Shown here piece by piece: positions 3,188 to 18,894 of a DNA stretch of 20,000 nt. The translations under genes and the position numbers were made by a program. The notes under the pieces are model-generated. The model was not told the origin of the DNA. It made no database searches and was given only the letters and a program-made list of their open reading frames with translations. The stretch lies in IMG/VR virus record IMGVR_UViG_2049941000_000011; one strand, written 5' to 3'. Origin of the DNA: an uncultured virus (IMG/VR IMGVR_UViG_2049941000_000011) (lineage: Duplodnaviria; Heunggongvirae; Uroviricota; Caudoviricetes). Numbering within the stretch: position 1 is the first letter of the stretch; each line of letters starts with the position of its first letter.

Positions 3188-3559
3188 ATGGTGAAAATAA
3201 AATTATACAGGTATGAATTATATCGATTCAATAAGCAATATTGCTACGAAAAAATTTATCAAAGCTTTAATTTGCAAAATGCATTAAAAGAATTAGATAA
3301 GATTTTAAGAATAAGAGCAAAGAGTGAAGAGTTTCAGCACTATGAAGATTTCATGGCAAGACTAGAAGACCGTGTCAGGAGTCATCAGGAAGATTGTCAA
3401 TTAGATGAATCTTTTCTCACAGACAAAAACTGTTTCTGGAACATTCATAGCGGAACAAATTGGCAGAAACCAAAAGAACGCCATCACGAAATCGAAACAG
3501 GTGTAGATGTCGCAGGAAAACTGACAGGAAGATGGATGCTGAATGTCACCAGGCTCTAG
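3188..3559 (+). CDS. hypothetical protein, tag variant MVKIK (array A)
   Basis: AAGGAG at 3175-3180, ATG 3188. Confidence 0.8.
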   Translation: MVKIKLYRYELYRFNKQYCYEKIYQSFNLQNALKELDKILRIRAKSEEFQHYEDFMARLEDRVRSHQEDCQLDESFLTDKNCFWNIHSGTNWQKPKERHHEIETGVDVAGKLTGRWMLNVTRL

Positions 3560-3570
3560 GAGGTAACCGT

Positions 3571-4008
3571 ATGTTTAAAATTAAATTTGGAAATTATTAT
3601 GAACTTTTTTGTGCCAATCTAAACGAAACCAAGATATGTAGATTCGGAAACAAAAAACCAGACTTATTAAATCTGCCAGTGGGCCAGGGACTATGGGTAG
3701 AAAACACTATTGAAGAATGGTGGGACAAATTGAAAGTAGGAAGAATTAAAGCTGACGAATCTAAGTGGTGTAAATGGGCAATTGACGAAATAATAACATT
3801 CATGCTAAAGGTTGAACTTGCAGTGGAGGATGGGGATAAAGTAGCAGATATCAATAAAAAGAAACGTCACAATACAACGCCAGAAGGATATTTTGTTAAT
3901 GCCGCGGCACACACAGAGGATGTTAATTCTCTCATCACTTGTTATTTCTTTATTGGTCGTTATGGCGTAACAGAAATGTCCCTTGTTTGGGATATCCACA
4001 AGAGGTAA
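3571..4008 (+). CDS. hypothetical protein, MFKIK tag (array A)
   Basis: AGGAGGT RBS then ATG 3571; the ORF-track start at 3460 is an unlikely extension. Confidence 0.85.
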   Translation: MFKIKFGNYYELFCANLNETKICRFGNKKPDLLNLPVGQGLWVENTIEEWWDKLKVGRIKADESKWCKWAIDEIITFMLKVELAVEDGDKVADINKKKRHNTTPEGYFVNAAAHTEDVNSLITCYFFIGRYGVTEMSLVWDIHKR

Positions 4009-4013
4009 TGTGT

Positions 4014-4409
4014 ATGTTTAAGATTAAAAAGCTTGCAACATATGAAGTTATTCAATACTTTTGGTCATCTGGTTCAGGATTCAAACCTGCTAGCACCTTC
4101 ATGGAACTTTTGAAAGAAGTGGAAGTGGAAATAATCCGCGAATTTCGCGGGAGCGGGATGCGCGTGGATGAAGATTTAGCTGATATATTAACAGAGTTTT
4201 GGGAATATGTCGGTAACACCCAAGGATACGCCACTGAAGACAAAATAAAAAAAGAAATTGAAATGCAATATGGGGACTATAAGGCCCGCATCAGGACTTT
4301 TATGTCTGGCTCTGGTAGAACAACAGAATATGTGATAACCATAGATTCGAAGAATTGTAGAATAACACGAGAAATTCATGTAGGAAGGAGGATGCCAAAC
4401 GATGTTTAG
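4014..4409 (+). CDS. hypothetical protein, MFKIK tag (array A)
   Basis: GAGGT RBS, ATG 4014. Confidence 0.85.
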   Translation: MFKIKKLATYEVIQYFWSSGSGFKPASTFMELLKEVEVEIIREFRGSGMRVDEDLADILTEFWEYVGNTQGYATEDKIKKEIEMQYGDYKARIRTFMSGSGRTTEYVITIDSKNCRITREIHVGRRMPNDV

Positions 4410-4782
4410 AATTATTTTTAACAAATGTGTAGAAAAGTATTACGTCACTTTTGGAATAGTAAGGTCTGAAATGACAGACTTAAAGAAAGTTATCAATTGG
4501 CTAAAGATCCGTGTAGATGACATGTTTGGCAGAAGAGGTTGGAAACCTTTATTCGAGAAGTTAGAGAACCATATTAACATAACGCAACACATAAAAAATG
4601 ATTGTTTGGGAGATATGACATTCGAGAATCGAGAGTATAGTATTAAAATACATCATAATATTTATGGTCAGCAAAAAAGGCATCTCCAATACAACATCTG
4701 TTTTTACATTCGTGGAATATTCCAGGATGGGGGAATAGTTATTGTAGAAAGGAAAAGGAGTCCAAAAAAATGTTCAAAGTAA
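4402..4782 (+). CDS. hypothetical protein, MFRII tag (array A)
   Basis: AGGAGG RBS; 8-nt overlap ATGTTTAG with the upstream stop. Confidence 0.85.
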   Translation: MFRIIFNKCVEKYYVTFGIVRSEMTDLKKVINWLKIRVDDMFGRRGWKPLFEKLENHINITQHIKNDCLGDMTFENREYSIKIHHNIYGQQKRHLQYNICFYIRGIFQDGGIVIVERKRSPKKCSK

Positions 4783-5087
4783 AAAAATATACTATTATAT
4801 TGGATGACACCACACATGAGGGGGTTAATATTGACCAGGTCCAAAATAATTTTTTGATCGATTTATTTTTTACAGACCAGATATCTGTTGAAAAAGCTAT
4901 AACAGCCATGGAGTGGATAAGAGATGTAATCAAAAACGGGAACGATACCAAACAACGCCCATCAGGAGTAGGAATAGCACACTCAAGAGATCCAAATGAC
5001 CCTGGATATCATGCATTCTGTGTTAGAATACCCCGTGAAAAGGAATCATCAATTTATTTTGATGTATATACAAATTATTTAAACTGA
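4770..5087 (+). CDS. hypothetical protein, MFKVK tag (array A); probable paralog of 5102-5440
   Basis: AAGGAG RBS; shares KYxxxxD...VRIP...F-x-V pattern with the next gene. Confidence 0.85.
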   Translation: MFKVKKYTIILDDTTHEGVNIDQVQNNFLIDLFFTDQISVEKAITAMEWIRDVIKNGNDTKQRPSGVGIAHSRDPNDPGYHAFCVRIPREKESSIYFDVYTNYLN

Positions 5088-5101
5088 GAGGAGGAGTAGC
5101 T

Positions 5102-5440
5102 ATGTTTAAAATAAAGCTTAGAAAATATATAATGACCATAGATGGTTATTCATACGAGCGTTGGACTTTTATAAAAGCTAAGAACGACCTAATGCAACAT
5201 TTATTAGCGAAAGGTATGAAGAATGCTGGTGCAGTCATCCTTCCAACTATAAGAGCTTTAAACTACATTAAAAATATATATGATGGCGTCCCAGAATCCG
5301 AGAATAAAAAACCAGAAGATATAAACATTAAAATGGGTTTAGACGAACCAGATATATATTACTCTGTTAGAATACCTATGAAAAACACTGATGATTATGT
5401 TTTCTTCACAGTAGCAGCAAAGGAGATATCTCATGTTTAG
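5102..5440 (+). CDS. hypothetical protein, MFKIK tag (array A)
   Basis: GAGGAG RBS, 112 aa. Confidence 0.85.
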   Translation: MFKIKLRKYIMTIDGYSYERWTFIKAKNDLMQHLLAKGMKNAGAVILPTIRALNYIKNIYDGVPESENKKPEDINIKMGLDEPDIYYSVRIPMKNTDDYVFFTVAAKEISHV

Positions 5441-5834
5441 AATAATATTTAAAAACGCATTCCACGGATGGAAACCAAAATATAAACTGCATACGGGGCG
5501 AATCTTTGATACAGTCTCAGATCCAATCGTGCAAAGATTGAGCGAATGCTTCTTGAGAATCCCAGATGAGGGTAGTTGGTTACCAAAAAAAGCTCGTCCA
5601 GAATTCTTCATAGCTGTAGCGAACAAATGTGAAAGACCCTACATGGGATTCCCATACTTGATTCCAGCTTCTATAGATTGTTCTTTTTTAGGCGATGCTG
5701 GGGCCGTGAGAAGCAGTATTAAAAAAGGGGTTAAGAGAAAATACCCTTTTCCAAAAGTATTTGGGCCCAAATATTGCACGGTAGAACAACAGATAGAAGT
5801 GCTAAAAAGAATCTATAGACAATGGAGGTTATAA
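5433..5834 (+). CDS. hypothetical protein, MFRII tag (array A)
   Basis: AAGGAG RBS; 8-nt overlap ATGTTTAG. Confidence 0.85.
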   Translation: MFRIIFKNAFHGWKPKYKLHTGRIFDTVSDPIVQRLSECFLRIPDEGSWLPKKARPEFFIAVANKCERPYMGFPYLIPASIDCSFLGDAGAVRSSIKKGVKRKYPFPKVFGPKYCTVEQQIEVLKRIYRQWRL

Positions 5835-5895
5835 GATGTATATTATCTGATTATTGGTAAAAAAATAAAGTCATTGAAGAACAGGAGGTATAGTT

Positions 5896-6159
5896 ATGAA
5901 CTTAGATGGCGAAATTTATGAAGTAGAGATAGCGTATCCTACTAATAGTGGAGAATCTTCAGTTAGAAAATTCTTCGCATCCAAAGATGAAGCAAAAGAG
6001 TTTGCAATGTCATGCGCTGGAGAGGACTATGAATATTTAGACCTCTGTGAATGGGACCCATGCGGGCCCAACTGGTCTATCATTGAACAGATTCGCACAG
6101 AAGACGGTAGAATTATAACAATCGCACAAATCGACAACACATACAAGGAGGAAAAATAG
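5896..6159 (+). CDS. hypothetical acidic protein
   Basis: AGGAGGT RBS, 87 aa. Confidence 0.8.
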   Translation: MNLDGEIYEVEIAYPTNSGESSVRKFFASKDEAKEFAMSCAGEDYEYLDLCEWDPCGPNWSIIEQIRTEDGRIITIAQIDNTYKEEK

Positions 6160-6160
6160 T

Positions 6161-6526
6161 ATGGAAAAATTTAAAATTAAAAATTTATTATTGCTCGAAT
6201 TAATTAATAAAAAGAATGCCATTGAAGATTTATCCAGGGCAATGTCAAAAAACATCCACAACGTCTCAAATGTAGAATTTAAAGCATTCTATAATAAGGG
6301 GCACGGATGGATTGAAGAAAGAATCATAATGACCTACCGCGGAGGGGCTATTGCAGTAAGAAATGTAAATATCAATTCACTTATCTGTGACTATGAAGAG
6401 GCAATGAAACTTGCCCGTGGCGGGTATTACGATGAGGTTGAAGGATATAGAAAGATGTTAGAGAACGAGAACTACATTGATATCCTGGAAAACCTAAATG
6501 AATTTTCACCAGAGGAGGTCTATTAA
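6161..6526 (+). CDS. hypothetical protein (starts MEKFKIK)
   Basis: AGGAGG RBS, 121 aa. Confidence 0.8.
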   Translation: MEKFKIKNLLLLELINKKNAIEDLSRAMSKNIHNVSNVEFKAFYNKGHGWIEERIIMTYRGGAIAVRNVNINSLICDYEEAMKLARGGYYDEVEGYRKMLENENYIDILENLNEFSPEEVY

Positions 6527-6527
6527 G

Positions 6528-6743
6528 ATGAAAGTCAAAACATTAATTGCAAAGTTGCGTAAGATCGCACAAAAGAATCCTGATGCCCAGGTGTTGGGAT
6601 TGGGAGATGAAGATGCTGGAGCAATCTATGATGTTAGTTACTATGAGAAGTGCACAGAAGATGAACTTCCATATGATGGAGGTGGATGCACAGACAGATT
6701 CTTGGGCAAAGACATTGTTGTCTTGAAAGGAGAATGGAACTAA
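6528..6743 (+). CDS. hypothetical protein
   Basis: GGAGGT RBS, ATG 6528 (MKVKTLIAKL). Confidence 0.75.
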   Translation: MKVKTLIAKLRKIAQKNPDAQVLGLGDEDAGAIYDVSYYEKCTEDELPYDGGGCTDRFLGKDIVVLKGEWN

Positions 6744-7024
6744 TGAACAACGAACGCAAATTAGAATGCATCGCAGATCTCGTGAAGAATTACCTTAACG
6801 ATAAGAAGGAATATTCCAGGATCCGTAACAATATGGTTTGGTATAGAGAATCAATGAAGGAGAACCAGGGCGTGGATGTCACTCCAGAACAAGCATTCAT
6901 GTTCGTGATGCAAAGCCCAACCAGCATCTATCAAGATTTGACCATCGCTGAACAAAAGGAAGTAGCTGCAAGTTTATGGGCAGCGCTTGTTAGAAAGAAC
7001 TATAGTTTAACCAGGATTTGGTAG
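6743..7024 (+). CDS. hypothetical protein
   Basis: AAGGAG RBS, TAATG overlap, MNNERKLE start. Confidence 0.75.
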   Translation: MNNERKLECIADLVKNYLNDKKEYSRIRNNMVWYRESMKENQGVDVTPEQAFMFVMQSPTSIYQDLTIAEQKEVAASLWAALVRKNYSLTRIW

Positions 7025-7036
7025 AAGGAGAATAAT

Positions 7037-7429
7037 ATGCTTAAAGTAAAAGTAACTCATGAGTATGAACTCGATCATACATTATTAACAGATATCTTAT
7101 CAACGGCTCTTACAGGTAACGACCTCTGGACTGTTGATTGGGATCCAAAAGATTCGAAGGCCATGAAGGCGAATCATCCTGAAATTACCGATTGGTGCAT
7201 AGAAGATGTTCTTGCGGGATTGCTTGAAGACGGCAAGACCTTTATCTTGATAGACAACGAAGAAGGTAAAGAACACACCGTAACGGCAGAAATGTTTGCA
7301 AATGGCATTGCCTTGTATGAAAAAGACCATGGCACTATTCAAAGTATCATGGAAGATGCAGACTTTGATTTATGGGATGGCGATGCGGTATTGCAACTAG
7401 CAGTATTTGGGGAGGTAATTTATGGATAG
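7037..7429 (+). CDS. hypothetical acidic phage protein
   Basis: AAGGAG RBS; ends DAVLQLAVFGEVIYG. Confidence 0.8.
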   Translation: MLKVKVTHEYELDHTLLTDILSTALTGNDLWTVDWDPKDSKAMKANHPEITDWCIEDVLAGLLEDGKTFILIDNEEGKEHTVTAEMFANGIALYEKDHGTIQSIMEDADFDLWDGDAVLQLAVFGEVIYG

Positions 7430-7634
7430 AGAGAAACTTTACGAAGCTATTGACAACAATACACTGTTTGATTTCATTGCTAATGAATACGACGACATGA
7501 CCAAGTATGAATTGAAAGAAGTTCTTTTAGCCGTGCTTGGAGTTGGATATGACGGATGTCACAGCGAAGAAGATGAGCGTGCCTGGATGGAACTCATCTA
7601 CAACGAATTACATGATTACAGGGAGTTTTATTAA
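7422..7634 (+). CDS. hypothetical acidic protein
   Basis: GGAGGT RBS, 8-nt overlap. Confidence 0.8.
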   Translation: MDREKLYEAIDNNTLFDFIANEYDDMTKYELKEVLLAVLGVGYDGCHSEEDERAWMELIYNELHDYREFY

Positions 7635-7636
7635 TT

Positions 7637-7963
7637 ATGATGACAGCCAAAGAAAGAAAAGAAATGAGAGAAAAGTTCTTTAAAGACTTTGATATCAGCG
7701 CTGATTCAAGTAAAGATGCAGGAGTGGGCATATTGATTGCCCACCACTACATCAGTTTGGGTGAACGAGTAATACAGACAATAACCGAAGAGGATATTGA
7801 GAGGGCTTACAAGGATGAAGTGCAGAAGCAAAAAGATGCGGAAGCGAAGGGGCTCGTATATATGGTAGAGCCCGATTTCACTAAGTTCGTATTAACAGCC
7901 TGTGTGGCATTATATAAGTTGCCATCCGAAGTAAAATATGATATAATTAAGAAATTAATATAA
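7637..7963 (+). CDS. hypothetical protein
   Basis: GGGAG upstream, 108 aa, tight packing. Confidence 0.75.
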   Translation: MMTAKERKEMREKFFKDFDISADSSKDAGVGILIAHHYISLGERVIQTITEEDIERAYKDEVQKQKDAEAKGLVYMVEPDFTKFVLTACVALYKLPSEVKYDIIKKLI

Positions 7964-7996
7964 TGTAGAGATGAAGAAGTCTCTGGAGGTAAAATT

Positions 7997-8359
7997 ATGT
8001 TCAAGATTCCTAACATTGAATACAAACTTAATAAGGAAATAACAAATGAACAGCTAGTTGCAGCAGAAACCTATTATATGACCAACACAATATTTCAAAT
8101 TCGAGACGGTAGGAAGAGAACTTTCTTTATAACAAATAAGAATCCCGAAAAGAAACCAGACGGCACGATTGAGTTCCGTGAATGCAGCATGATTGACAAA
8201 ACTTGTTTTGAAAAGGATGGTAGTTATCACGGCGCCCTACTCGCAGGGTTTAAATATTTTATCTTCAGAGACGAACTCGGTGGTGACCCCGAAGGATGGT
8301 ATTCTTCAGTGTATGACAGTAAAGATATAGTGGAAGCAGGTGATGAATATGAGTTTTAG
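7997..8359 (+). CDS. MFKIP-tagged protein, paralog 1 of 3 (array B)
   Basis: GGAGGT RBS; TIEFRECSMIDKTCFEKDG...YFIFRD motif shared with the next two genes. Confidence 0.85.
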   Translation: MFKIPNIEYKLNKEITNEQLVAAETYYMTNTIFQIRDGRKRTFFITNKNPEKKPDGTIEFRECSMIDKTCFEKDGSYHGALLAGFKYFIFRDELGGDPEGWYSSVYDSKDIVEAGDEYEF

Positions 8360-8696
8360 AATACCTAAAATCCACAAAAAACTTACACCTCTGTCCGAGG
8401 AACAACTCAAGATATTAGATGCGAGATTCGGTAGCGAAAACGTAATACTAATAGAGAAGCATGGCGTATTTATATGTGACAAACAAACTAAACACAGTAG
8501 AGCCAAGACAGTTGAATTAAGAGACTGTAGAAAAGTGGATGGCACCTGCTTTACCAGCACGGGGGAATACGCAGGAACATATGTTGGCAAACAACAATAC
8601 TTCATTATGAAAGACATGCTTGACGATAGCGAATTGTTTCTACAATACTATTATGATAGAGAAATAATAAAGGAGGGATATGAACATGAGCTTTAA
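8349..8696 (+). CDS. MSFRIP-tagged protein, paralog 2 of 3 (array B)
   Basis: AGGTGA RBS; TVELRDCRKVDGTCFTSTG...YFIMKD. Confidence 0.85.
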   Translation: MSFRIPKIHKKLTPLSEEQLKILDARFGSENVILIEKHGVFICDKQTKHSRAKTVELRDCRKVDGTCFTSTGEYAGTYVGKQQYFIMKDMLDDSELFLQYYYDREIIKEGYEHEL

Positions 8697-9030
8697 GATT
8701 CCTAGGATTCAGATTAGAAGACAACACAGGGTCTTTATATCTGAGAGCAATTTTCATAATTTACTAGACGCTGGGCATATAGTAATAAATGTTATGCTGC
8801 GAGGAACTTTTGTGTGCTCAGCTATGACTAAGCATGAAAAAGAAGCTACGATTGAATTTATTAACTGTAGACGAGTTGATGATAGCTGTTTTGCAGAAGA
8901 CGGTTTCAGAGATATGTATTGTCCTGAACCAGCAAAAAGATTTATTTTTCAAGATGCACAAGCAGAAGACCGCACTGCATACAGTTCAATCTATTATACA
9001 GATGAAATAGTAACAGAAAGAGAGGAATAG
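8686..9030 (+). CDS. MSFKIP-tagged protein, paralog 3 of 3 (array B)
   Basis: AGGAGG RBS; TIEFINCRRVDDSCFAEDG...FIFQD. An in-frame ATG at 8680 is an alternative start. Confidence 0.85.
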   Translation: MSFKIPRIQIRRQHRVFISESNFHNLLDAGHIVINVMLRGTFVCSAMTKHEKEATIEFINCRRVDDSCFAEDGFRDMYCPEPAKRFIFQDAQAEDRTAYSSIYYTDEIVTEREE

Positions 9031-9032
9031 TT

Positions 9033-9404
9033 ATGTCTTTTAAAATTAAACCATTAGAAAAGCCAACGAAATTTTTCGTAACAAGCAGAAGAATCAGCAA
9101 TAAGATATACGAAGTATTGAAGGCTCATGGTCTTCATATATGTTATTCTCGCTACTGGGATACTGGCGACGGAGAACAACTTGAAAATAAGAATGTCTTC
9201 GCAAATTTTGCTAATACTTTCATTTTTGATAAAGAACCTCGCTGGGAAGAATCATGGACAAATCCAAAAACTGGCTTTGTAGAAAAGTGGATTCCTGATG
9301 TAAACAAATATTTGATGGAAGACGAAGTAGTACAGGACCAAGAATTTTATAAATATCTTAGTGATATTTTAGAGAAAGAAGGTGTAGAAGAATGTTTAGA
9401 TTAA
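9033..9404 (+). CDS. MSFKIK-tagged hypothetical protein (array B)
   Basis: GAGG RBS, 123 aa. Confidence 0.85.
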   Translation: MSFKIKPLEKPTKFFVTSRRISNKIYEVLKAHGLHICYSRYWDTGDGEQLENKNVFANFANTFIFDKEPRWEESWTNPKTGFVEKWIPDVNKYLMEDEVVQDQEFYKYLSDILEKEGVEECLD

Positions 9405-9655
9405 AGATAGACGCGGTGCATTTATTAACCTGGAGGAGCCCGTCCACTGGGGGAGTTAAATTTGTAGGATGGGACAGCAAAAGAAAGATTTATTCAACCA
9501 ATTATTACGAGAACGTGGGTTTTGGAAAAAAGACAACCTGGGTAAAGACCAGAAAAGAAATTAACAATAAAGTTAAAGAACTTATATCCAAGGAATACCA
9601 TGAAGTTGAATATCTAAGAGAAATTCACATATTTGGTCATGTGCATAATGAATGA
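9392..9655 (+). CDS. MFRLK-tagged hypothetical protein (array B)
   Basis: AAGGT upstream, 13-nt overlap with the upstream gene. Confidence 0.8.
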   Translation: MFRLKIDAVHLLTWRSPSTGGVKFVGWDSKRKIYSTNYYENVGFGKKTTWVKTRKEINNKVKELISKEYHEVEYLREIHIFGHVHNE

Positions 9656-10097
9656 TAGGATTTTAGCTGGAATCGTGGTTGTCGGTGCGATTGTCCTGGG
9701 GGCGGTTGCACTGATAATCAGTCTATTAATAGCTACACTCATTGATGAGAGAAAGGAGAATATGAGTAATATGGATAGACGTTATGTTGAGGGGCACGTA
9801 TCTGCCCAAGACCCTGAAGGTATTCAAGGAGCTTTGTATAAAGTTGACGCCGATGATGGTGATGTAATTAAATATTTATACATTGACAGCATTGAAGACT
9901 ATAGGGTACAATATTGGAGCTTTAATGAAGATAAAGAGCTCATAGATGGCGGTGAAATTGACACGACATCTACAGACCCAGAAGACATCCTGGATGATGT
10001 TAAGAGCTGGGTCGGCTTAGACGGAGCCACTCTTGAAAAAGAAGAAGACTGGCTGGACATCAGTGACCTGGAAGATTGGGGTTTCACTGGAATGTAA
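9648..10097 (+). CDS. N-terminal TM helix plus acidic domain; internal in-frame start at 9762
   Basis: ATGAATGA overlap at 9648; TM ILAGIVVVGAIVLGAVALIISLLIATLI; AAAGGAG followed by ATG at 9762. Confidence 0.7.
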   Translation: MNDRILAGIVVVGAIVLGAVALIISLLIATLIDERKENMSNMDRRYVEGHVSAQDPEGIQGALYKVDADDGDVIKYLYIDSIEDYRVQYWSFNEDKELIDGGEIDTTSTDPEDILDDVKSWVGLDGATLEKEEDWLDISDLEDWGFTGM

Positions 10098-10124
10098 AAA
10101 AAAGAAGAAAGAAGGAAATAAATT

Positions 10125-10478
10125 ATGTTACAAATTAGAACAGGATGTTTTGAAACAAATAGCTCAAGCACACACAGCTTAATCATGTGCTCAGAAAATC
10201 AATATAAAGACTGGATAGATGGAAAACTCTATTATTGTCAATGGGAAGAGTGCACAGGAGCTAAGAAAGGGCATTTCTATACCAAAGAAGAAGCTTTAAA
10301 ATTAGCACAAGGGTGCAAATGGTATGATGAAGAAGACGGATTACGTAGCGTGGGTCTATACACATTTGATGAATGGGAAGAAGACTCTTGTGTTGAAGAA
10401 ACAAAAAAATATGTTACCGAAAGTGGGGAAACAATTCTCGGATTATTAGTAGAAGAGGGTTGCTTCTCGGATTATTAG
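10125..10478 (+). CDS. phage protein with N-terminal RxGxFETNSSSTHS motif
   Basis: MLQIRTGCFETNSSSTHSL is a motif recurrent in uncharacterised phage proteins; AAGGA RBS. Confidence 0.8.
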   Translation: MLQIRTGCFETNSSSTHSLIMCSENQYKDWIDGKLYYCQWEECTGAKKGHFYTKEEALKLAQGCKWYDEEDGLRSVGLYTFDEWEEDSCVEETKKYVTESGETILGLLVEEGCFSDY

Positions 10479-10502
10479 TAGAAGAGGGTTGCTAGTAGAA
10501 GA
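10435..10502 (+). repeat. 29-bp perfect tandem duplication plus partial third copy
   Basis: TTCTCGGATTATTAGTAGAAGAGGGTTGC at 10435-10463 and 10464-10492, then TAGTAGAAGA. Confidence 0.9.
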
Positions 10503-10540
10503 ATAAGCGACTATGGATGTGGAAGAAAGGAGAAATGGAC

Positions 10541-11341
10541 ATGGAAGCTAGAAATTTATTAATAGGTCTATCCATTAAACACAATGGTGACTGGGAAAAA
10601 ATCTATAAAGCCGTATCTAGTAAAGATGTTGAGGAACTGGAATCATTCATCGAGCAATTTGAAAAGTCGGGATGCAAAGCGCTGACTATGCTGGACAAAG
10701 AATATCCAGATAGTTTAAAACATAGTTATCAGCCACCGTTCGTATTATTTTACGAAGGAGATTTATCATTGCTTGACCACATAGACAGTAATCTAGCAGT
10801 AGTTGGGACTCATGAACCTACTGGATATGGTATTGAGATGACCCATAACTTAGTGGGAGAGTTGTCCAGGAGTTACAACATCGTAACAAGTATCCGTCCT
10901 GGAATAGATAGTATAGCCTGTGATGCGGCGCTGTCCAATGAATATGGTCATGTCATTGCAGTGGTGGCAGGAGGGTTCGGATGTAAAACAAAATACAAGA
11001 ACTGGGACGAGCTTAAAAAGAATCATCTTGTATTAACAGAATACTTTGGAACCGAAAAACCAGAAGTCCATAAAGGATGCATGGGTAAAGATAGAATCAT
11101 TGTTGGTTTATCCAAAGGGCTACTGGTCATTGAAGATACAAAAACTGGACGCTCAGCAGTAACAGCAAACCTTGCATTAAGCAATGGCAGAGAGATTCTT
11201 GCGGTTCCAGGAAGAGCTGGAGAAGATTCATTATCAAATTCTTTAATTAGAACAGGAGCTGTCCTGGTAGAAACAGCTGAAGATGTTAAAACAGAATTAG
11301 AGGCGTTTGTAATGAGTAGCACGCCAGAGGAGGTAAAATAA
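10541..11341 (+). CDS. dprA: DprA/Smf DNA-processing protein homolog (non-canonical motifs)
   Basis: AAAGGAG RBS; DKEYPDSLK, PPFVLFYEGDLSLL, LAVVGT, GIDSIA, IAVVAGG, LVLTEY, RIIVGLSKGLLVIE, GREILAVPG, NSLIRTGAVLV are DprA signature blocks. Confidence 0.85.
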   Translation: MEARNLLIGLSIKHNGDWEKIYKAVSSKDVEELESFIEQFEKSGCKALTMLDKEYPDSLKHSYQPPFVLFYEGDLSLLDHIDSNLAVVGTHEPTGYGIEMTHNLVGELSRSYNIVTSIRPGIDSIACDAALSNEYGHVIAVVAGGFGCKTKYKNWDELKKNHLVLTEYFGTEKPEVHKGCMGKDRIIVGLSKGLLVIEDTKTGRSAVTANLALSNGREILAVPGRAGEDSLSNSLIRTGAVLVETAEDVKTELEAFVMSSTPEEVK

Positions 11342-11343
11342 TT

Positions 11344-12152: not shown

Positions 12153-12175
12153 AAAAAGAAAGAGGAGGAGTGAAT

Positions 12176-12760: not shown

Positions 12761-12773
12761 GGAGGTAAATAAT

Positions 12774-13007
12774 ATGGAAGATGTTGAAGGAAAGAAAATC
12801 AAAGAAGGGGACTTGATTCTTATTCCAGTCTTGATAAGAAAAATGTGCTACAGCATATTGGACAGTTTCCGAATCGTTAAAGTTACCAGGATGACAGAGA
12901 AAAGTATGTGGGTCATAGACCGCAGTGGCAAAGGAAAAGAGTTTTTAATCCGCCCTGATTCTAAAAAGATTTACAGAATTTCTAGAAAAAATTACAAAAT
13001 CACTTGA
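12774..13007 (+). CDS. small SH3/KOW-like beta-barrel protein (putative)
   Basis: AAGGAGGT RBS; DVEGKKIKEGDLILIP...VKVTRMTEKSMWV. Confidence 0.7.
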   Translation: MEDVEGKKIKEGDLILIPVLIRKMCYSILDSFRIVKVTRMTEKSMWVIDRSGKGKEFLIRPDSKKIYRISRKNYKIT

Positions 13008-13032
13008 CGCCCTGGAAAACATGTTATACTAT
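13004..13032 (+). promoter_or_regulatory. sigma70/sigmaA-type promoter for the FtsK-containing unit
   Basis: TTGACG (13004-13009), 17 bp, TACTAT (13027-13032); an overlapping TGnTATACT is also present; CCTGG occupies the same spacer position as in the 3037 promoter. Confidence 0.7.
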
Positions 13033-13056
13033 AAAGGTAACAAAAGAGGAAATAGT

Positions 13057-13692
13057 ATGAAAAAAAACAGAAAGAGTGGTATCAAAATAATGGCAGAATC
13101 ACTTTCACAATCATTAAGAAACCATGTAAATGCAATGATGGCGAGGGTCATGTATCGCCGCGATGACGAAGAGTTATTAGAAAGCTGGGTCATGTATGAG
13201 ATGACGTCGGATGCAATGCTTGATTCCTATGCAGGATGTAACGGATTAATCGAATGGACACAAGAAGCTTTGAAAACATATGACCATGAAAATTGGATAT
13301 CGAAAGCTTGTCTTAAAAATTTAATCAGAATCCTAAAGACCCATCAAACAAGTCTCACGAAGACAGATGAAGATTGGAAGCTTCTTAAGGAGGACTTCCA
13401 TAAAGAGGCTCAGCGAAGAGCTGATAAATTTTATCCTGACGCCGCATATGAAAGTATCCTGGAAAGATTGAATAAATATGGCAGCACCGTCATGGGTTAT
13501 CATATGTATGAATCCCTTGGAGAACAAAAAGTAAAAGAAGACCTCGCCGAAAGAGGAATCAAAAACGCCAAGATTGAAGTAACCAATTATAATGTAACAA
13601 AGGATTGCTTCGAAGACAAAGCGGTGGTGAATGGTCACTCCATGTGGGTGCTCACACCAATATTACCAATTGTAAAAATCAGCACCTGCTGA
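13057..13692 (+). CDS. hypothetical protein
   Basis: AGAGG RBS, ATG 13057; the ORF-track start at 13021 lies inside the promoter. Confidence 0.8.
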   Translation: MKKNRKSGIKIMAESLSQSLRNHVNAMMARVMYRRDDEELLESWVMYEMTSDAMLDSYAGCNGLIEWTQEALKTYDHENWISKACLKNLIRILKTHQTSLTKTDEDWKLLKEDFHKEAQRRADKFYPDAAYESILERLNKYGSTVMGYHMYESLGEQKVKEDLAERGIKNAKIEVTNYNVTKDCFEDKAVVNGHSMWVLTPILPIVKISTC

Positions 13693-13705
13693 TGGAGGTG
13701 AAAAT

Positions 13706-14032
13706 ATGGGATTTAAGATTCCAAAGTTGAATGGGATGTTAGTCTACGTAAGATGGGTTAAAGACGAAAAAGCATCCGCAGCAGAATATGCATTCAAGAT
13801 TAACAAAGATGGAGACATGCCGACAGTCGGAAACCTATATGCAGTTCGTGGCGAAAACAGCGGCACGGTCGTCGTAACAAGATTGGGAGCCGGACGCCGC
13901 GATGAGGATTCGGGGCGCTTACAGGTAACAAGAGAAGATGGAACAAAATTCAATATAACAAAACAAATGATGTTCAATCAAAAAGAATCAACAGCAACTG
14001 CAACAAAATATACTGGAAGATTCACATTATAA
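13706..14032 (+). CDS. MGFKIP-tagged hypothetical protein
   Basis: GGAGGTG RBS, 108 aa, beta-rich; directly upstream of the FtsK gene. Confidence 0.85.
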   Translation: MGFKIPKLNGMLVYVRWVKDEKASAAEYAFKINKDGDMPTVGNLYAVRGENSGTVVVTRLGAGRRDEDSGRLQVTREDGTKFNITKQMMFNQKESTATATKYTGRFTL

Positions 14033-14057
14033 TAAAGAAAGAAAGGAGCGTGGTCAT

Positions 14058-15488
14058 ATGGCGGTTACCAAGAAAAAAGATCTTGGCCATAAGATTGTTG
14101 ACCAATTCTCATCGATGGGAATACAGGTGAAACTAGCTAAGACAGTAGAATCGCCAAGATTCACAACTTACTATTACAATATGCAGGATCCGCTGCAGAT
14201 CCTCAAATTAAAGGATAAGCACGTAGATGTAATCCGTGACTTCAACAAAGTTAACGTCGTATACGGCCATCCTGAGGGCTATAGCTTTTCCCTGATGATT
14301 CAAAAGAAGAAAGTATCAACACTCAAAGTTTCTAAGCTTAAACAGCCTAAAACGCAATCGCCACACATCAAGGTGAATATCGGTCTAGATCTCTTAAATA
14401 AAGATGTAATCCTGGATTTCGATAAAACGAATCACCTGTTGGTAGCTGGAACTACAGGTAGCGGGAAGAGCGCCTTCATCAATACGATTCTATACACGTT
14501 AATTAAGGCTGTAGACCAGGAAGATTATGAACTTAAGCTTATAGATCCGAAGAGAGTTTCCTTCAACGCATTCAAGTCCCTGAAAAACGTGGAATTGATC
14601 ACTGAGACGGAGCAAGCATCAGATCTATTCACGCAGCTAATCAAGCTAATGGAGTTCCGTTACGAATATATGGAAAGCCATGGTGAGACAGATAAGAACA
14701 TCTTCAAGCCAACATTTGTCGTAGTAGATGAGCTAGCGGAGTTGATGTTGGTAGACAGAGCTAATTGTGAAGATAAGCTTATCAGGCTCCTACAGAAGGG
14801 ACGCCAGGCGAACATCCACATCATCCTGGCAACACAGCGCCCAACAACGGATGTAATCAGCGGCTTGATCAAAGCCCAGTGCGATACCAGGGTATGCCTA
14901 AAGATGGCCAGTGCTAAAGATAGCATTACGGTTATCGATAAAGGTATTGGGCAAACGCTCTTGGGTCGTGGAGATGGATTCATAAAGTATCCTGATAAAC
15001 CAGATGAAATCAGGTTCCAAACCGCTTTGGTTACAGATGCTGCGATATCCAAGCAAGTATTGTCCATGAAGCAGAAGAGTCGATTCGTAGAAGACGCCCT
15101 GGAAGAAACAACATGTTCCCGTGCCGCGGGGGCTGCAGCAATGATAGCGATCAGCAACATCCGCGTGAAAGCCGCAGTGGACAAATGCATCCGCAATATA
15201 TCTTCTTGGGGATTCAAGCTTCCAAAGAACTTATCCTGGGCAGAACAACAATCAAGTTCCTGGCTGGGATTGACAAAATTCCAGGATCCATGTATAATAT
15301 TAAATACTAAGCTTAATGAGCAAACGGATCCAATGATTGACATCGTCATCTACCATGAACTGGGACACATCATTGCGGGGCCCGCAGCTGGTCACAAAGG
15401 TAGATGGAGAGAAGTAATGAACGTGATTCATGAACACACAGGGTATGTATTCCATGAATATGTATATGCCCGCATCACCGAATCATGA
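14058..15488 (+). CDS. FtsK/SpoIIIE-family ATPase fused to a C-terminal SprT-like zinc metalloprotease domain
   Basis: HLLVAGTTGSGKS (Walker A), LIDPKR, FVVVDELAELM (Walker B), LLQKGR, HIILATQRP, LLGRGDG; C-terminal HELGH...GHKGRW (SprT-like HExxH plus downstream His). Confidence 0.9.
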   Translation: MAVTKKKDLGHKIVDQFSSMGIQVKLAKTVESPRFTTYYYNMQDPLQILKLKDKHVDVIRDFNKVNVVYGHPEGYSFSLMIQKKKVSTLKVSKLKQPKTQSPHIKVNIGLDLLNKDVILDFDKTNHLLVAGTTGSGKSAFINTILYTLIKAVDQEDYELKLIDPKRVSFNAFKSLKNVELITETEQASDLFTQLIKLMEFRYEYMESHGETDKNIFKPTFVVVDELAELMLVDRANCEDKLIRLLQKGRQANIHIILATQRPTTDVISGLIKAQCDTRVCLKMASAKDSITVIDKGIGQTLLGRGDGFIKYPDKPDEIRFQTALVTDAAISKQVLSMKQKSRFVEDALEETTCSRAAGAAAMIAISNIRVKAAVDKCIRNISSWGFKLPKNLSWAEQQSSSWLGLTKFQDPCIILNTKLNEQTDPMIDIVIYHELGHIIAGPAAGHKGRWREVMNVIHEHTGYVFHEYVYARITES

Positions 15489-15501
15489 GAAAGGAGAGCC
15501 T

Positions 15502-15672
15502 ATGTTAGTAGCATTACTAATGGCGTTAGGATTTATATTCTTGATATTCTTAGCAGGAGCACTTAAGTCCTACTCAGAGTTCAAAAAGATCTATGGGCCA
15601 CGTCCCCCAACCGACGAAGAAGACGAACGTGCAGCTGAAGCGAAGGCTAAGCGCTCATCGGAAAACAAATAA
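15502..15672 (+). CDS. small single-TM membrane protein
   Basis: AAAGGAG RBS; MLVALLMALGFIFLIFLAGAL followed by a charged tail. Confidence 0.75.
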   Translation: MLVALLMALGFIFLIFLAGALKSYSEFKKIYGPRPPTDEEDERAAEAKAKRSSENK

Positions 15673-15716
15673 CCAACAACCTATTGGTAGTATAGAATTT
15701 CTAAGGAAAGGAGGTA

Positions 15717-15902
15717 TTGATTACTAGGATGCTGTTGTTGCTCATCTTAACAATTATAGCAATCATATTTGGGTACATTATCTATAGCTTCATCGAAGTC
15801 AAGAAGACAGAGATGTCAAAAGATGCAAAAATCTTAGCAATCGGACTAATGTCACTACCAATAATTGCTGCGATTGTAAGTCTCATAGCCAGCTGCTTCT
15901 AA
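15717..15902 (+). CDS. small two-TM membrane protein
   Basis: AAGGAGGT upstream; two hydrophobic helices separated by a charged loop; start could be TTG 15717 or ATG 15729. Confidence 0.75.
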   Translation: MITRMLLLLILTIIAIIFGYIIYSFIEVKKTEMSKDAKILAIGLMSLPIIAAIVSLIASCF

Positions 15903-15934
15903 CAGGAGTAGCCCCGGCTGGGACCGAAGGACAC

Positions 15935-15964
15935 AAAGGGGAAGGCTAAAAACCTTCCTCTTTT
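15935..15964 (+). terminator. rho-independent terminator
   Basis: AAAGGGGAAGG-CTAAAAA-CCTTCCTCTTTT hairpin with T-run after the last + strand gene. Confidence 0.75.
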
Positions 15965-16426
15965 CAGCACCTGACAAAAAAACAGGATTAATTATCTATA
16001 CTTTTTTATATATATTTTTTACTTAATAAAGAGTTAATTGCATATTTTTCCAGGAATTTTCCGAGAATTTATACTTTTTCCTACTTTTTACTGAGTTTTT
16101 CTATATTTTTATTTTTAGCCATTTTAAGCCACGAAAAAATATATAGGCATTGATCTTTTCACGCCCATATATATAAACGCCGCTACGGGCCTAAAAATAA
16201 ATAAAAACAGGCATCTACGCGCATTTTACTACTATACGCGCGCAAATAACCCGCTCTAATTTACCAACCGTCCTAGGGTAAGTCCACGACGTTAAACTGG
16301 ATAGCGGCCAGCCCCCACTATGCCATCATTTTTTTTATTTTTTTTATTACCCCGCGCGGCGGCCCGCCGGCCAACTCCGTTTTTGAAAACTCGTATCTAG
16401 CTCCGGCCGTATCTAGCTCGCCCCCC
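15965..16426. other. non-coding strand-convergence region with phased T-tracts and GC-rich repeats
   Basis: T-tracts about every 10 bp from 16045 to 16125; CGTATCTAGCTC direct repeat at 16392 and 16408; GC-rich run 16350-16372. Confidence 0.6.
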
Positions 16427-16873
16427 CTAGAGCTTCAGCGTGGCCTTTGGTGGTTGCCTGTATATGAATCCCAGTTCGTCCCTGACGCACTCTTCTATCC
16501 ACTTTTCGACATCTACGTGTCCACGTCTGGTAATTATAGGGTGACTGTGGTCTTTGCCCTCGTGACTAAGCGAAGCCGATAATGATATCTCGTAATCGCC
16601 CGTGATATGTTGATAGATTTCTTCAGGATCAGGATATAAAACTAATTGATAGTCTGGTAAAGGATTAATTGTTCCGTCTCTCGCAACATCGTGTGTCACC
16701 TTATATATAACAAATTGTTGTTGTTCATCATTTTCATCAAGAAACAGAACAGAAGCGCCCGGATGACCAAAATTCTCTCTGATCGCATTCATCACGCTAT
16801 GCGCCCATTCTTTATCTAATGTAATAATATCACCAACCTGATATCGTCCTTTTAACATTTTAATTTTAAACAT
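16427..16873 (-). CDS. MFKIK-tagged protein with KOW/SH3-like start (array C)
   Basis: GGAG RBS; YQVGDIITL; 8-nt ATGTTTAA overlap. Confidence 0.85.
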   Translation of the reverse strand: MFKIKMLKGRYQVGDIITLDKEWAHSVMNAIRENFGHPGASVLFLDENDEQQQFVIYKVTHDVARDGTINPLPDYQLVLYPDPEEIYQHITGDYEISLSASLSHEGKDHSHPIITRRGHVDVEKWIEECVRDELGFIYRQPPKATLKL

Positions 16874-17231
16874 CTTTATCTCCCACGTATTTTCCGTCTG
16901 TGTCGGTTACTTCATCAAGCAATCTACCGTAATATCCGTATTCGCGTCTCCACTCCTCTTCGCTGATCTTTTTTAAATCCTTGCGATGGAAACAATACTT
17001 AATTCCATTATAATCCCTGATGTCCACCAAATAATGACACGAGGCTCCCTCACTAGGATCTGCCTGGACAACTATTCCAATATATGTCTTGGTGTTTATA
17101 ACTTCCTTGCTATCCAGCACCAAAGTATTCATCACGCCATCTTCGCCGCCTTGAGAGCCGCGTGTGACCTGCTCTTTACATATAACTATGTCGCCTGGTT
17201 GTAATGGCCCGAAATCTTTAATTTTAAACAT
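16866..17231 (-). CDS. MFKIK-tagged protein with KOW/SH3-like start (array C)
   Basis: LQPGDIVIC...YIGIVVQ...YLVDI; 8-nt overlap. Confidence 0.85.
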   Translation of the reverse strand: MFKIKDFGPLQPGDIVICKEQVTRGSQGGEDGVMNTLVLDSKEVINTKTYIGIVVQADPSEGASCHYLVDIRDYNGIKYCFHRKDLKKISEEEWRREYGYYGRLLDEVTDTDGKYVGDKDV

Positions 17232-17736
17232 GATCTTTCCATAACCCCCTTGCTTGTAATAAAGCTATACAATCGTTGCCAACCCTACCTAGATTGTGAG
17301 ATTTGCGCCACTCCATTCTTCCAAGAGGAATATTCATGACATGAGTCTCATCACATTCCAGATCAGGCGCACGCACGATATCACTAAACTTATATCTAAC
17401 GACGCACTTATCTCGATCTACATCTCTTCTTTTGAGCAGACTCGTGCTGAGAATGACGTTGCGGCAATTCTCCTTAATACTTTCGTAAGAGCACTTCAAT
17501 TTATTACATGTCACAACAGTGTCCGCCAAATATTTAATAATATCATCAGCAATAATGACATCGTATGTATCTACTGACACAAAAATCGGTGGATCCCATC
17601 CTTTTTGTTCCTGCAGCTCACGGCGATAGGTTTTCGCCTGGACAATCCCCATAATAACACACGATGGATCTACATCATCTTGCCAGCACACAACGTCACC
17701 GACTTCAGCTTGGCTCCTAAATTTGATCTTAAACAT
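17224..17736 (-). CDS. MFKIK-tagged protein with KOW/SH3-like start (array C)
   Basis: AAGGT RBS; AEVGDVVCW...IMGIVQ...YDVII. Confidence 0.85.
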   Translation of the reverse strand: MFKIKFRSQAEVGDVVCWQDDVDPSCVIMGIVQAKTYRRELQEQKGWDPPIFVSVDTYDVIIADDIIKYLADTVVTCNKLKCSYESIKENCRNVILSTSLLKRRDVDRDKCVVRYKFSDIVRAPDLECDETHVMNIPLGRMEWRKSHNLGRVGNDCIALLQARGLWKDHV

Positions 17737-17738
17737 AT

Positions 17739-18008
17739 TTATTTACCTTTCGCCTCACTTGCATCGTCTAGCGTCCCTTCTAATGCTCGTCTAAGTAATT
17801 GTGTCTTTCCACTACAACGAGCACCCACGAACACAGTATACGTGCCGCCGCTGCCAGCGCCCATTGATCCCCAGGTCTTCATGAAATCTTCCCATTCCTT
17901 CGCCATGTTGTCAATCTTGGTGTGGGAGAATTTCTGTTTACTCTTCGGCAGGGCCCTTATTTTTTGTTGCTTCTTAATTTTGTTTTCTATAGATGGAATT
18001 TTAAACAT
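17739..18008 (-). CDS. MFKIP-tagged 89-aa protein with an orphan Walker A motif (array C)
   Basis: GAGG RBS, ATG 18008; TVFVGARCSGKTQLL near the C-terminus. Confidence 0.8.
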   Translation of the reverse strand: MFKIPSIENKIKKQQKIRALPKSKQKFSHTKIDNMAKEWEDFMKTWGSMGAGSGGTYTVFVGARCSGKTQLLRRALEGTLDDASEAKGK

Positions 18009-18010
18009 AT

Positions 18011-18343
18011 CTATTTTTTCCTCTTTATCTGAAGAGTGGCATCGGTCCATTTTCTTTTTAGCTCTTCATATTGATCAACCTCATGAACAACAGCCACATC
18101 TTCAGCAACTTTTTTCGCGGCGGCGTTCATCATTGCTTGATATAGTTTTATTTGATAATCTTTATAATCAGAATCTATAGCTATATCGACAGATGGAGTG
18201 ATACTGCTCTCAGCACATCTATCTGCTGCCTCAGGATCTATCTCTACCTCTATATCGGGCTTACTCCATCCCGCCAGTCCTTGCATGACTTCTATAAGTT
18301 TTCTTCTTCTGATCTCTCGTTCTATTTTTGGAATCTTGAACAT
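18011..18343 (-). CDS. MFKIP-tagged hypothetical protein (array C)
   Basis: GAGGT RBS; MFKIPKIEREI resembles MFKIPSIENKI of the next gene. Confidence 0.85.
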   Translation of the reverse strand: MFKIPKIEREIRRRKLIEVMQGLAGWSKPDIEVEIDPEAADRCAESSITPSVDIAIDSDYKDYQIKLYQAMMNAAAKKVAEDVAVVHEVDQYEELKRKWTDATLQIKRKK

Positions 18344-18515
18344 ATTCTCTTACCTCTATTGGTGCTACATCTAGTGATGGGTATGTCTCTTTATATAGAC
18401 GGCTAGCTCCATGGAAACCCAGGATCCTGTAGAACTCTACATATATCTCGCCTTCTTTACGCCCACCTTCAATCACACATTGTATTTTTCTCTCGAACCT
18501 TCTTATTCTAAACAT
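18261..18515 (-). CDS. MFRIR-tagged hypothetical protein (array C), overlapping the next gene by 83 nt
   Basis: Starts 1 nt after the upstream TGA; reads through the next start because ATGTTCAAG has no in-frame stop. Confidence 0.7.
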   Translation of the reverse strand: MFRIRRFERKIQCVIEGGRKEGEIYVEFYRILGFHGASRLYKETYPSLDVAPIEVREYVQDSKNRTRDQKKKTYRSHARTGGME

Positions 18516-18516
18516 A

Positions 18517-18894
18517 TCAGAACCCTTTGAAATGCATCACAAGCTTCATATATTCTTCTTCAGATAAATCGAAGTTCTTACAGCTATCTTTATATATAGG
18601 TCCAAGTTCATAATGAGCATGTGTCGGTGAATCGCTATCTACGGTAATGCTATTATGCTCTATAGGAAGCAAGTCACCTCTAGGGAGAAAGGAATCACCA
18701 CCCGTACCCCAATCTATATCGAACGTTGCACCCATCTGAGGATCCATAGAATCTATTTGATAGGCAGCTGGAGTTATATGTTTAACGATACATCTATATA
18801 GGGTTCCACCTGTATCTCTAATCATAGGGTTAATTTTAAATATATATACAAGTTCCCCGATTTTGAATTGATGACGTCTATAGATTTTAAACAT
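18517..18894 (-). CDS. MFKIY-tagged protein with KOW/SH3-like start (array C, first gene)
   Basis: GAGGT RBS; FKIGELVYI...YRCIVKHITPAAYQI. Confidence 0.85.
   Translation of the reverse strand: MFKIYRRHQFKIGELVYIFKINPMIRDTGGTLYRCIVKHITPAAYQIDSMDPQMGATFDIDWGTGGDSFLPRGDLLPIEHNSITVDSDSPTHAHYELGPIYKDSCKNFDLSEEEYMKLVMHFKGF

Follow-up and report, generated by a model that had tools for sequence, protein, structure and literature searches.

A recurrent N-terminal Phe-Lys/Arg-Ile-type peptide on small proteins of an uncultured phage-like element: a candidate protein-addressing tag

The 20,000-nucleotide stretch analysed here, from an uncultured virus (Caudoviricetes; IMG/VR record IMGVR_UViG_2049941000_000011) and hereafter called the window, contains 19 small genes whose proteins begin with variants of one short peptide, Met-(Ser/Gly)-Phe-Lys/Arg-Ile/Leu/Val. 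We tentatively favour the reading that this peptide is a portable N-terminal handle which would be read from its free end by one common partner, and give it somewhat less than an even chance. A sequence-only reading of the same DNA had proposed such a tag on 20 small proteins. All of the starts that it listed are present and the motif was confirmed at gene starts; 19 of them match the pattern used here and the twentieth, MVKIK at 3188, is a near variant. The layout is as it described, with array A (3188-5834), array B (7997-9655), array C on the minus strand (16427-18894) and a singleton at 13706. Genes are referred to below by their lower coordinate, and their features are collected in Table 1.

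The motif at gene starts

Gene models were built from the list of open reading frames (ORFs) in the window, guided by ribosome-binding sites (RBSs), which gave 44 genes. The tag was defined by the regular expression M[SG]?F[KR][ILV], which was run on the six-frame translation of the window. All 19 matches coincide with RBS-supported gene starts and none is internal. From the amino-acid frequencies of the protein bodies, 0.056 tagged starts would be expected among the 44 gene models (probability of 19 or more ~1e-43). At the DNA level the form ATGTTYARRATH is present in 13 copies; dinucleotide-preserving shuffles gave a mean of 0.18 and a maximum of 3, and 0 of 200 reached 13. The motif is thus far above both the shuffle and the amino-acid expectation. 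The nine-base core TTYARRATH, taken without the ATG, occurs 29 times against 13.6 expected, and its 11 non-start copies are at about chance level.

For background, IMG/VR was scanned for an RBS together with ATGTTYAARATT. At least 118 loci (~446 kb) were obtained, each picked for one match; among the matches listed, a second start-like match was found in only three of these loci and a third in none, against 18-19 per 20 kb in the window. Residue 5 is Lys in nine and Pro in six of the tagged proteins (15/19), whereas in the MFKI-type starts of other phage contigs it is diverse (Lys 8 and Pro 2, or 10/87, among the matches listed). The motif therefore extends past four residues and is written M-(S/G)-F-[KR]-[ILV]-[KP]. 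Near variants outside the regular expression are MVKIK (3188), MEKFKIK (6161) and MLKVKV (7037). The independent gene calls of public protein collections start orthologues at the same residues (MFKIP, MFKIK, MSFKIK and MFKIN). A search of the full-text literature for MFKI-type motif strings gave no relevant match among those listed, and it is on this one search that absence from print depends.

The FKIP sub-class that had been pointed out in the sequence alone proved to comprise seven genes: 7997, 8349, 8686, 13706, 17739, 18011 and, with Arg for Pro, 18261. The pattern F[KR]I[PR]x[IFL]... is common to them over 12-14 N-terminal residues and is carried by at least four unrelated bodies. The first 14 residues of 17739 and 7997, for example, are 64% identical, and no alignment continues beyond them.

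In 8686, GGAGG lies 9 nucleotides (nt) before the ATG used here and just 3 nt before an upstream in-frame ATG. The start of 18011-18343 is less clear than the rest. This gene shares its first 83 nt (18261-18343) with the end of 18261-18515, and its ESM Atlas record begins at residue 20; either gene model may be in error, or the region may contain a frameshift.

The bodies that carry the motif

Searches against Pfam, PHROGs (up to an E value of 5) and NCBIfam placed the tagged proteins in no family, and they are regarded as ORFans. An all-versus-all BLASTP comparison linked only the family B trio (7997, 8349 and 8686) and, weakly, 3571 with the untagged 7037. When the first eight residues were removed and Smith-Waterman scores were compared with those of shuffles, the trio gave z scores of 18-20 and 3571/7037 a z score of 6.8; all other pairs were below 5.6. 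The statement that the bodies differ is borne out at the level of these comparisons, the trio being the only significant group among the tagged genes. In a profile-profile comparison (hhalign) of family B with the array C family, only columns 1-6, which are the tag, align (probability 1.6%).

AlphaFold2 (AF2) models of family B and of 16866 were calculated from shallow alignments and have a mean predicted local distance difference test (pLDDT) score of 60 and 65, respectively. The 16866 model is a small β-barrel. Its best matches are all of the SH3/Tudor/KOW type (PsaE, the PHF19 Tudor domain and the Spt5/NusG KOW domain), with middling VIA Z scores of 6-7.2 and Foldseek E values of at least 0.2; at the level that these tools reach, the KOW/SH3-like bodies proposed for array C are upheld. 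The family B model consists of one helix and an antiparallel sheet and has no convincing match (best Z 4.9). In the family B model (7997) residues 1-13 are coil with pLDDT below 50. In 16866 residues 1-14 are coil, residues 1-5 have pLDDT below 50 and the strands begin at residue 15. This predicted coil fits a tag that is a free tail, though the models are weak and low confidence is common at chain ends.

The four array C barrels have a common 12-residue spacing before a GD/GE motif, and a late EEW..G motif, and from these sequence features are likely to be paralogues. Treating the bodies as one paralogous family fails across classes, by sequence, by profile and by predicted fold; it holds for the family B trio and, plausibly, among the array C barrels. 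The description of 20 different families is, on the other hand, too strong, since starts pair over 17-29 nt and four barrels have the common spacing. In view of these duplication marks at the starts and the likeness of the array C barrels, the description should be of three or four classes of start, carried by about fourteen bodies that appear unrelated in sequence.

Relatives of the window and retention of the tag

The FtsK-like gene 14058..15488 was used as the anchor for finding relatives. The one locus compared at length, L001, is a metagenome locus of which 14.4 kb, part of its contig, was used; its FtsK-like protein is 73% identical. The regular expression has no match in these 14.4 kb, though tags may be present in other parts of that phage. 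L001 homologues were found for 3/19 tagged and 15/25 untagged window genes (Fisher p 0.005), and within the syntenic span for 3/13 tagged and 14/16 untagged genes (p 0.0007). Where families can be compared, their starts differ. The 9033 protein begins MSFKIKPLEK and its L001 orthologue (35% identity) MVKIVLGLDR; 16866 begins MFKIKDFGPLQPGD and its L001 homologue MFRMIDKYLSGD (MFRMID); and the likely L001 counterpart of 16427, identified by eye with no BLAST hit, starts MWTITHWEGYYHVND. One family includes the tagged 3571, 7037 with MLKVKV and an L001 member with MNICYRV. At the position of 13706, L001 has a gene that also encodes 108 amino acids (aa), starts MFTSADLEKK and gives no BLAST match. 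MFR starts are present in two of the three genes of the L001 array C. The body of 9392 corresponds to just one half, the C-terminal one, of an L001 protein of 161 aa with two domains (3160-3645), so that the tagged start of 9392 is a new N-terminus. The absent or altered tag in L001 orthologues agrees with the modular tag proposed from the sequence. Together, the differing starts and the homologue counts indicate a tag that, as judged from sequence, is lineage-specific, has changed in parallel across several families and marks the variable gene set.

Close orthologues retain the tag. MFKIP is kept in the orthologues of 7997 (P0002-P0004; 72-77% identity), MFKIKD in those of 16866 (P0005-P0008; 79-99%) and MSFK[IV]K in those of 9033 (P0012-P0014; 76-89%). 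For 3571 the sole divergent relative among 1.84 billion representatives is P0010 (51% identity), which retains MFKINFGNYYELFC and agrees with 3571 at 13 of its first 14 residues (p 0.0012). A deep HMMER search with 3571 gave one relative cluster and one short repeat-like match in a 6865-aa protein.

Other searches for relatives were negative. No near-identical DNA was found in INPHARED phages or PLSDB plasmids, no relative in IMG/VR via the FtsK-like protein, family B, DprA or the 13021 family, and none in GTDB genomes via the FtsK-like protein or the zinc-ribbon protein. In JGI metagenomes family B gave no match and the FtsK-like protein gave L001 only, and 7037 had no match in phages by tblastn.

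In contigs from two RNA-library runs, 11947 and 7934 are linked through 22 other letters. L001 also places the homologue of 7637 beside that of 11922, and gene order around 11947/7934 is different in relatives. A further RNA-library contig joint, 16349 to 19936, was considered as a fusion after an N-terminal module and rejected; its short side is 21 letters and the joined frame stops at once.

A possible portable N-terminal handle

Under the reading that we favour, three arrays of fast-evolving small ORFan genes would have grown by tandem and segmental duplication, and one N-terminal peptide would have been kept while the remainder of each protein diverged beyond recognition. The mature end would be X-Phe-[Lys/Arg]-[Ile/Val/Leu]-[Lys/Pro], where X is the retained Met, or Ser or Gly after Met removal. 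Selection on the peptide would keep the handle, and one common partner would read its free end. In four genes the ATG is separated from TTT by one codon, for Ser (AGT, AGC, TCT) or Gly (GGA), and F-K/R-I is kept after it. Methionine aminopeptidase retains Met before Phe and removes it before Ser or Gly, and Phe would therefore be mature residue 2 in all 19 proteins.

A handle is favoured by the placement of every six-frame match at a start, by the unrelated bodies with two differing AF2 folds and by a peptide that is kept although its distance from the ATG varies. It is favoured too by a motif longer than four residues that close orthologues retain, by the lineage-specific and parallel distribution of the tag over a gene set that is variable with respect to L001, and by the coil predicted for the tag together with a core resembling the ClpX degrons of lambda O and Dps. 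Selection on the peptide, as put forward from the sequence, is supported by the Ser/Gly inserts and by conservation to residue 12-14, but a role in translation or at gene junctions explains several of the features equally well.

Several points weigh against a handle. No reader was found, and co-occurring genes across genomes were not searched; that a reader exists, that it is single and what it might be are matters that we purely infer. The AF2 models, with their pLDDT of 60 and 65, are weak, and their low confidence falls at chain ends, where it is common. Descent explains a good part of the sharing, to judge from the paired starts, the likely paralogous barrels and the MFR starts of L001. 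The A/T-biased tag codons show some selection, or history, at the RNA or DNA level. Six tags supply the stop codon of the gene upstream and two more contain it in codons 4-5. K-I at codons 3-4 or 4-5 is a high-yield motif in the available part of PMC6920384. The resemblance to ClpX degrons amounts to three residues.

As to what a handle might do, control of protein fate by an AAA+ unfoldase or protease such as host ClpXP, which would make the early proteins short-lived, ranks as the likeliest use by analogy, though it is itself unlikely. Virion loading ranks lower and is a slender prospect, as is another hub. The most specific form of the proposal is an undescribed addressing code of large gut-Firmicutes phages, in which X-Phe-Lys/Arg-Ile-(Lys/Pro) would be read at its free end by a single dedicated partner, a host AAA+ machine or a phage hub, that would set the lifetime or destination of ~20 hypervariable effectors; we regard it as possible but doubtful. 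If the peptide is a handle, it would open up to experiment all of the variable 'dark matter' genes of the lineage. It could be used to pull down the reader, to track or destabilize the effectors jointly and to recognize them in metagenomes by their first five residues.

Codons, junctions and translation start

The main alternative is a reused start or junction module that has no reader. RBS-ATG-TTT-AAR-ATT would be an efficient and compact start and the peptide a by-product. Such a start would be A/T-rich and unstructured, its TTT-A would provide the upstream stop and so couple translation, cassettes would inherit it and changes would lower expression. We consider this a credible possibility, if on balance an unlikely one.

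Base composition agrees with it in part. The A/T content of codons 2-6 is 83.5% in tagged and 70.7% in untagged genes. In comparison with the bodies, the tags over-use TTT for Phe (16/19; 48% in bodies, p 0.0013), ATT for Ile (11/17; 36%, p 0.015) and AGA for Arg (5/5; 47%, p 0.023), while AAA for Lys (8/14; 61%) is not significantly different. At third positions of codons 2-6, A/T makes up 81% in tagged genes and 73% in untagged ones, compared with 62% in bodies; as it is also raised in untagged starts, most of the tag codon bias is a general start effect. The synonymous variation that had been taken as a sign of selection on the peptide is thus real, but it is biased to A/T.

The junctions also agree with a start module. 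In eight of the 19 tagged genes the first 8-13 nt still belong to the gene before, and in six the tag itself holds the stop codon of that gene, as TT-TAA or TT-TAG (4402, 5433, 8349, 8686 and, on the minus strand, the starts at 16873 and 17231). These six (TTT-AAR or TTT-AGA) form start-stop overlaps of 8 or 11 nt, and the proteins encoded upstream have [DH]V or EF/EL as their last residues. Weaker starts form a continuum, with MVKIK, MLKVKV, MKVKTL, MRRIIK and MSKIEM. In the available part of Verma et al. (2019; PMC6920384), K/N-I and K/N-Y at codons 3-4 or 4-5 (AAVAUU, AADUAU) are the most enriched in high-eGFP E. coli variants. K-I occupies codons 3-4 or 4-5 in 13 of the 19 tagged genes, the remainder having R-I (4), K-V (1) and R-L (1), and the AAVATT hexamer of that motif is present in ten.

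Other features of the starts are not accounted for in this way. Phe is invariant at mature position 2, for which the parts of the translation studies at hand offer no explanation; codon 2 was fixed in the library of Verma et al. (PMC6920384), and the effect of the first three codons is strongly context-dependent according to the available text of PMC10415131. The Ser/Gly inserts use three unrelated codon types, and the FKIP class is conserved well past the codons concerned, to residue 12-14. RBS-to-ATG spacers of tagged genes are not conserved, 11/19 tags have no upstream overlap and L001 lacks the motif in its 14.4 kb. If the peptide is nevertheless a start module, it would be a natural translational ramp and stop-start junction reused across cassettes, and would inform expression design and the study of phage gene birth.

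Duplication, virion loading and recombination as rival readings

Plain descent would hold that one or a few ancestral small genes were repeatedly duplicated and that the N-terminus evolved slowest, as a structural first strand or an oligomerization strand. Duplication has left several marks. The arrays are tandem, and starts pair over 17-29 nt in 3571/5102 (82% over 28 nt), 4402/5433 (87% over 23 nt), 7997/8686 and 7997/18011. The pairs 4014->4402 and 5102->5433 have an identical 8-nt overlap, ATGTTTAG, which suggests a duplicated two-gene unit. The spacing and late motif of the four array C barrels point the same way, and alternating F-K-I-K is strand-like, with W-T-I-T at this place in the likely L001 counterpart of 16427 (by eye). 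Against this, the bodies have no cross-class sequence kinship and at least two predicted folds carry the tag, which is unpaired in both AF2 models, at low confidence. The 9392 tag sits on a body that is an internal domain in L001, and the start varies within the one family of 3571, 7037 and their L001 member. Descent by itself is in our view rather improbable as an explanation.

Virion loading, in which the tag would direct variable proteins to the head during its assembly, to be ejected into the host, is suggested by analogy and is very unlikely. In the T4 internal-protein loci, small proteins of a large phage that are polymorphic and unrelated characteristically carry one common N-terminal peptide, and the full-length matches of the FtsK-like gene are phage proteins. 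However, Pfam, PHROGs and NCBIfam revealed no head, protease or scaffold gene in the set of 44 window proteins, and the neighbours are DNA-handling genes (DprA, FtsK-like and PcfM-like). On inspection no cleavage-type motif common to all classes follows the tag, and nineteen folded cargo species would be many.

A DNA-level recombination site, at which start microhomology would let cassettes shuffle, duplicate and invert while the peptide is incidental, has in its favour identical 12-15-mers at several starts, a 25-nt inverted match (88% complementary, on opposite strands) between the 18011 and 7997 starts 10.3 kb apart, and the mosaic joints (11947 to 7934, two runs) and differing L001 gene order noted above, but the matches are short, differ at synonymous sites and give no sign of homogenization, the upstream spacers are not conserved and no tag coincides with any of the joints listed for relatives, which makes it highly improbable.

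The element and its neighbouring genes

The window looks like an early and accessory region; the element to which it would belong is large, uncultured and phage-like, and its ribosome sites are of the Firmicutes type. We infer that the element is a phage, although structural genes are absent from the 44 window proteins. The FtsK-like ATPase has full-length matches in phages only (Mycobacterium phage Omega gp204, 91% coverage), and 276 Bacillus phage records match; plasmid matches are confined to the ATPase core. The layout of ATPase and SprT-like domain over the full length of 14058-15488 is also matched in Omega gp204. Tagged-protein orthologues were located on contigs of up to 139.7 and 142.2 kb, and members of the lineage also on one of 42.4 kb.

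The runs with the complete window carry bovine gut metagenome labels and may be its source. Near-identical contigs (at least 99%) were found in three other studies, also with bovine gut labels; two of these are RNA libraries, which is no proof of transcription. Short metatranscriptome contigs match tagged genes with 0-1 differences at 3180-3396, 4548-4801, 9167-9452 and 13677-13815. There is a hint here that the arrays are transcribed in the habitat, with DNA carry-over as an alternative source of these contigs. No tRNA was found in the window, and a scan for promoters and terminators gave promoter-like sites at shuffle level (65 versus 60.9).

Table 1
Tagged arrays and backbone genes of the window (positions in the 20,000-nt stretch)
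Feature	Position	Strand	Length (aa)	N-terminus	Remarks
Array A, gene 1	3188..3559	+	123	MVKIK	Val for Phe; RBS ggaaaggag; no Pfam, PHROG or NCBIfam family
Array A, tagged	3571..4008	+	145	MFKIKFGNYYEL	RBS aggagg
Array A, tagged	4014..4409	+	131	MFKIKK	ORFan
Array A, tagged	4402..4782	+	126	MFRIIF	ATGTTTAG contains stop codon of 4014-4409
Array A, tagged	4770..5087	+	105	MFKVKK	Upstream stop in tag codons 4-5
Array A, tagged	5102..5440	+	112	MFKIKL	ESM Atlas model pLDDT 0.61, structural neighbours weak
Array A, tagged	5433..5834	+	133	MFRIIF	ATGTTTAG contains stop codon of 5102-5440
Array B, family B member 1	7997..8359	+	120	MFKIPNIEYKL	Paralogue of 8349 (E 7e-16) and 8686 (E 4e-9)
Array B, family B member 2	8349..8696	+	115	MSFRIPKIHKKL	TT-TAG of tag is stop of 7997-8359
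Array B, family B member 3	8686..9030	+	114	MSFKIPRIQIRR	TT-TAA of tag is stop of 8349-8696
Array B, tagged	9033..9404	+	123	MSFKIKPLEK	
Array B, tagged	9392..9655	+	87	MFRLKIDAV	
Backbone, DprA-like protein	10517..11341	+			PF02481 1.7e-40; TIGR00732 7e-36, under its curated cut-off
Singleton, tagged	13706..14032	+	108	MGFKIPKLNG	Directly upstream of FtsK-like gene
Backbone, FtsK/SpoIIIE-type ATPase with C-terminal SprT-like HExxH domain (HELGH)	14058..15488	+			PF01580 2e-31; phrog_1358 1.7e-68; SprT-like match weak
Array C, tagged	16427..16873	-	148	MFKIKMLKGRYQVGD	Barrel class; ATGTTTAA contains stop of 16866-17231
Array C, tagged	16866..17231	-	121	MFKIKDFGPLQPGD	Barrel class; ATGTTTAA contains stop of 17224-17736
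Array C, tagged	17224..17736	-	170	MFKIKFRSQAEVGD	Barrel class
Array C, tagged	17739..18008	-	89	MFKIPSIENKIKKQ	Basic
Array C, tagged	18011..18343	-	110	MFKIPKIEREIRRRK	Start less certain; ESM Atlas leads weak
Array C, tagged	18261..18515	-	84	MFRIRRFERKIQ	Basic; RBS weak
Array C, first gene	18517..18894	-	125	MFKIYRRHQFKIGE	Barrel class

Directly upstream of array A, the gene 1954-2784 encodes 276 aa; its N-terminal 70 residues resemble the N-terminus of the DprA-like 10517 (38%, E 2e-10) and the remainder has no family. The DprA-like gene has no clear RBS at its start. Just ahead of it, the gene 10125-10478 carries at its 3' end a perfect 29-nt tandem duplication (10435-10492), a length not divisible by three. 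One RNA-library contig lacks one copy of it, and the reading frame there would change. Other untagged neighbours are DpnD/PcfM-like, GP88/DUF5131-like and a phrog_2355 member.

Array C is flanked by long non-coding stretches (15903-16426 and 18895-19599) with GC-rich stems and long A/T runs, and a run of ten N is present at 19359-19368. The most conserved small gene adjoining it is 19600-19953 (minus strand), zinc-ribbon-like with 13 Cys and a weak TerY-C match; it and its L001 counterpart (13291-13644, minus strand) both start MRRIIK and are 67% identical.

Comparison with known systems

The RxLR and PEXEL effector motifs and the pre-regions of conotoxins combine a conserved N-terminal address with hypervariable bodies in expanded families. 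The tagged proteins resemble them, by analogy only, in carrying a conserved N-terminal address on hypervariable bodies. Those systems belong to other kingdoms and machinery, and their motifs follow a signal peptide, whereas the motif here is at the very N-terminus of cytoplasmic-looking proteins.

The translational ramp of PMC6920384, as far as its available text goes, has in common with the tag Lys-Ile at codons 3-4 (4-5 in the MSF and MGF forms here) and the AAVATT hexamer. It differs in that the ramp motif has no invariant Phe and was measured in E. coli reporters rather than in natural arrays, and in that Arg replaces Lys in 5/19 of the tags.

Among N-terminal degrons, the ClpS or Leu-type analogy suggested in the sequence-only reading was rejected as unlikely: Phe is never the first residue, always following Met, Ser or Gly, and ClpS has not been identified in Gram-positive bacteria according to the passage of a review available to us. 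The ClpX N-motif-1 degrons are closer. A review table gives those of lambda O (TNTAKI..) and Dps (STAKLV..), and according to PMC12723719 ClpX reads the lambda O degron within its open channel. These peptides, like the tag, stand at the very start of the protein and have a core of the type hydrophobic-Lys-hydrophobic (TAKI and TAKL, compared with FKI here), and the tag is likewise predicted to be unstructured in the weak AF2 models. Unlike them, the tag matches in only three residues, belongs to an element whose host is probably Gram-positive and is known from sequence alone. We know of no precedent for nineteen proteins bearing one degron in one phage.

The internal proteins of T4 (IPI-III and Alt) carry an N-terminal capsid-targeting peptide, and the internal-protein loci are polymorphic in T-even phages. 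As in the window, where 19/44 starts are tagged, one short N-terminal peptide is found there on unrelated, fast-changing small proteins in arrays. The motif sequence is unrelated to that of T4, no head or protease genes are nearby, no common cleavage-type site was seen after residue 5 on inspection and the genes alone were read here. The T4 capsid-targeting peptide is the closest known system, resembling the tag in its logic rather than in sequence, context or cleavage site.

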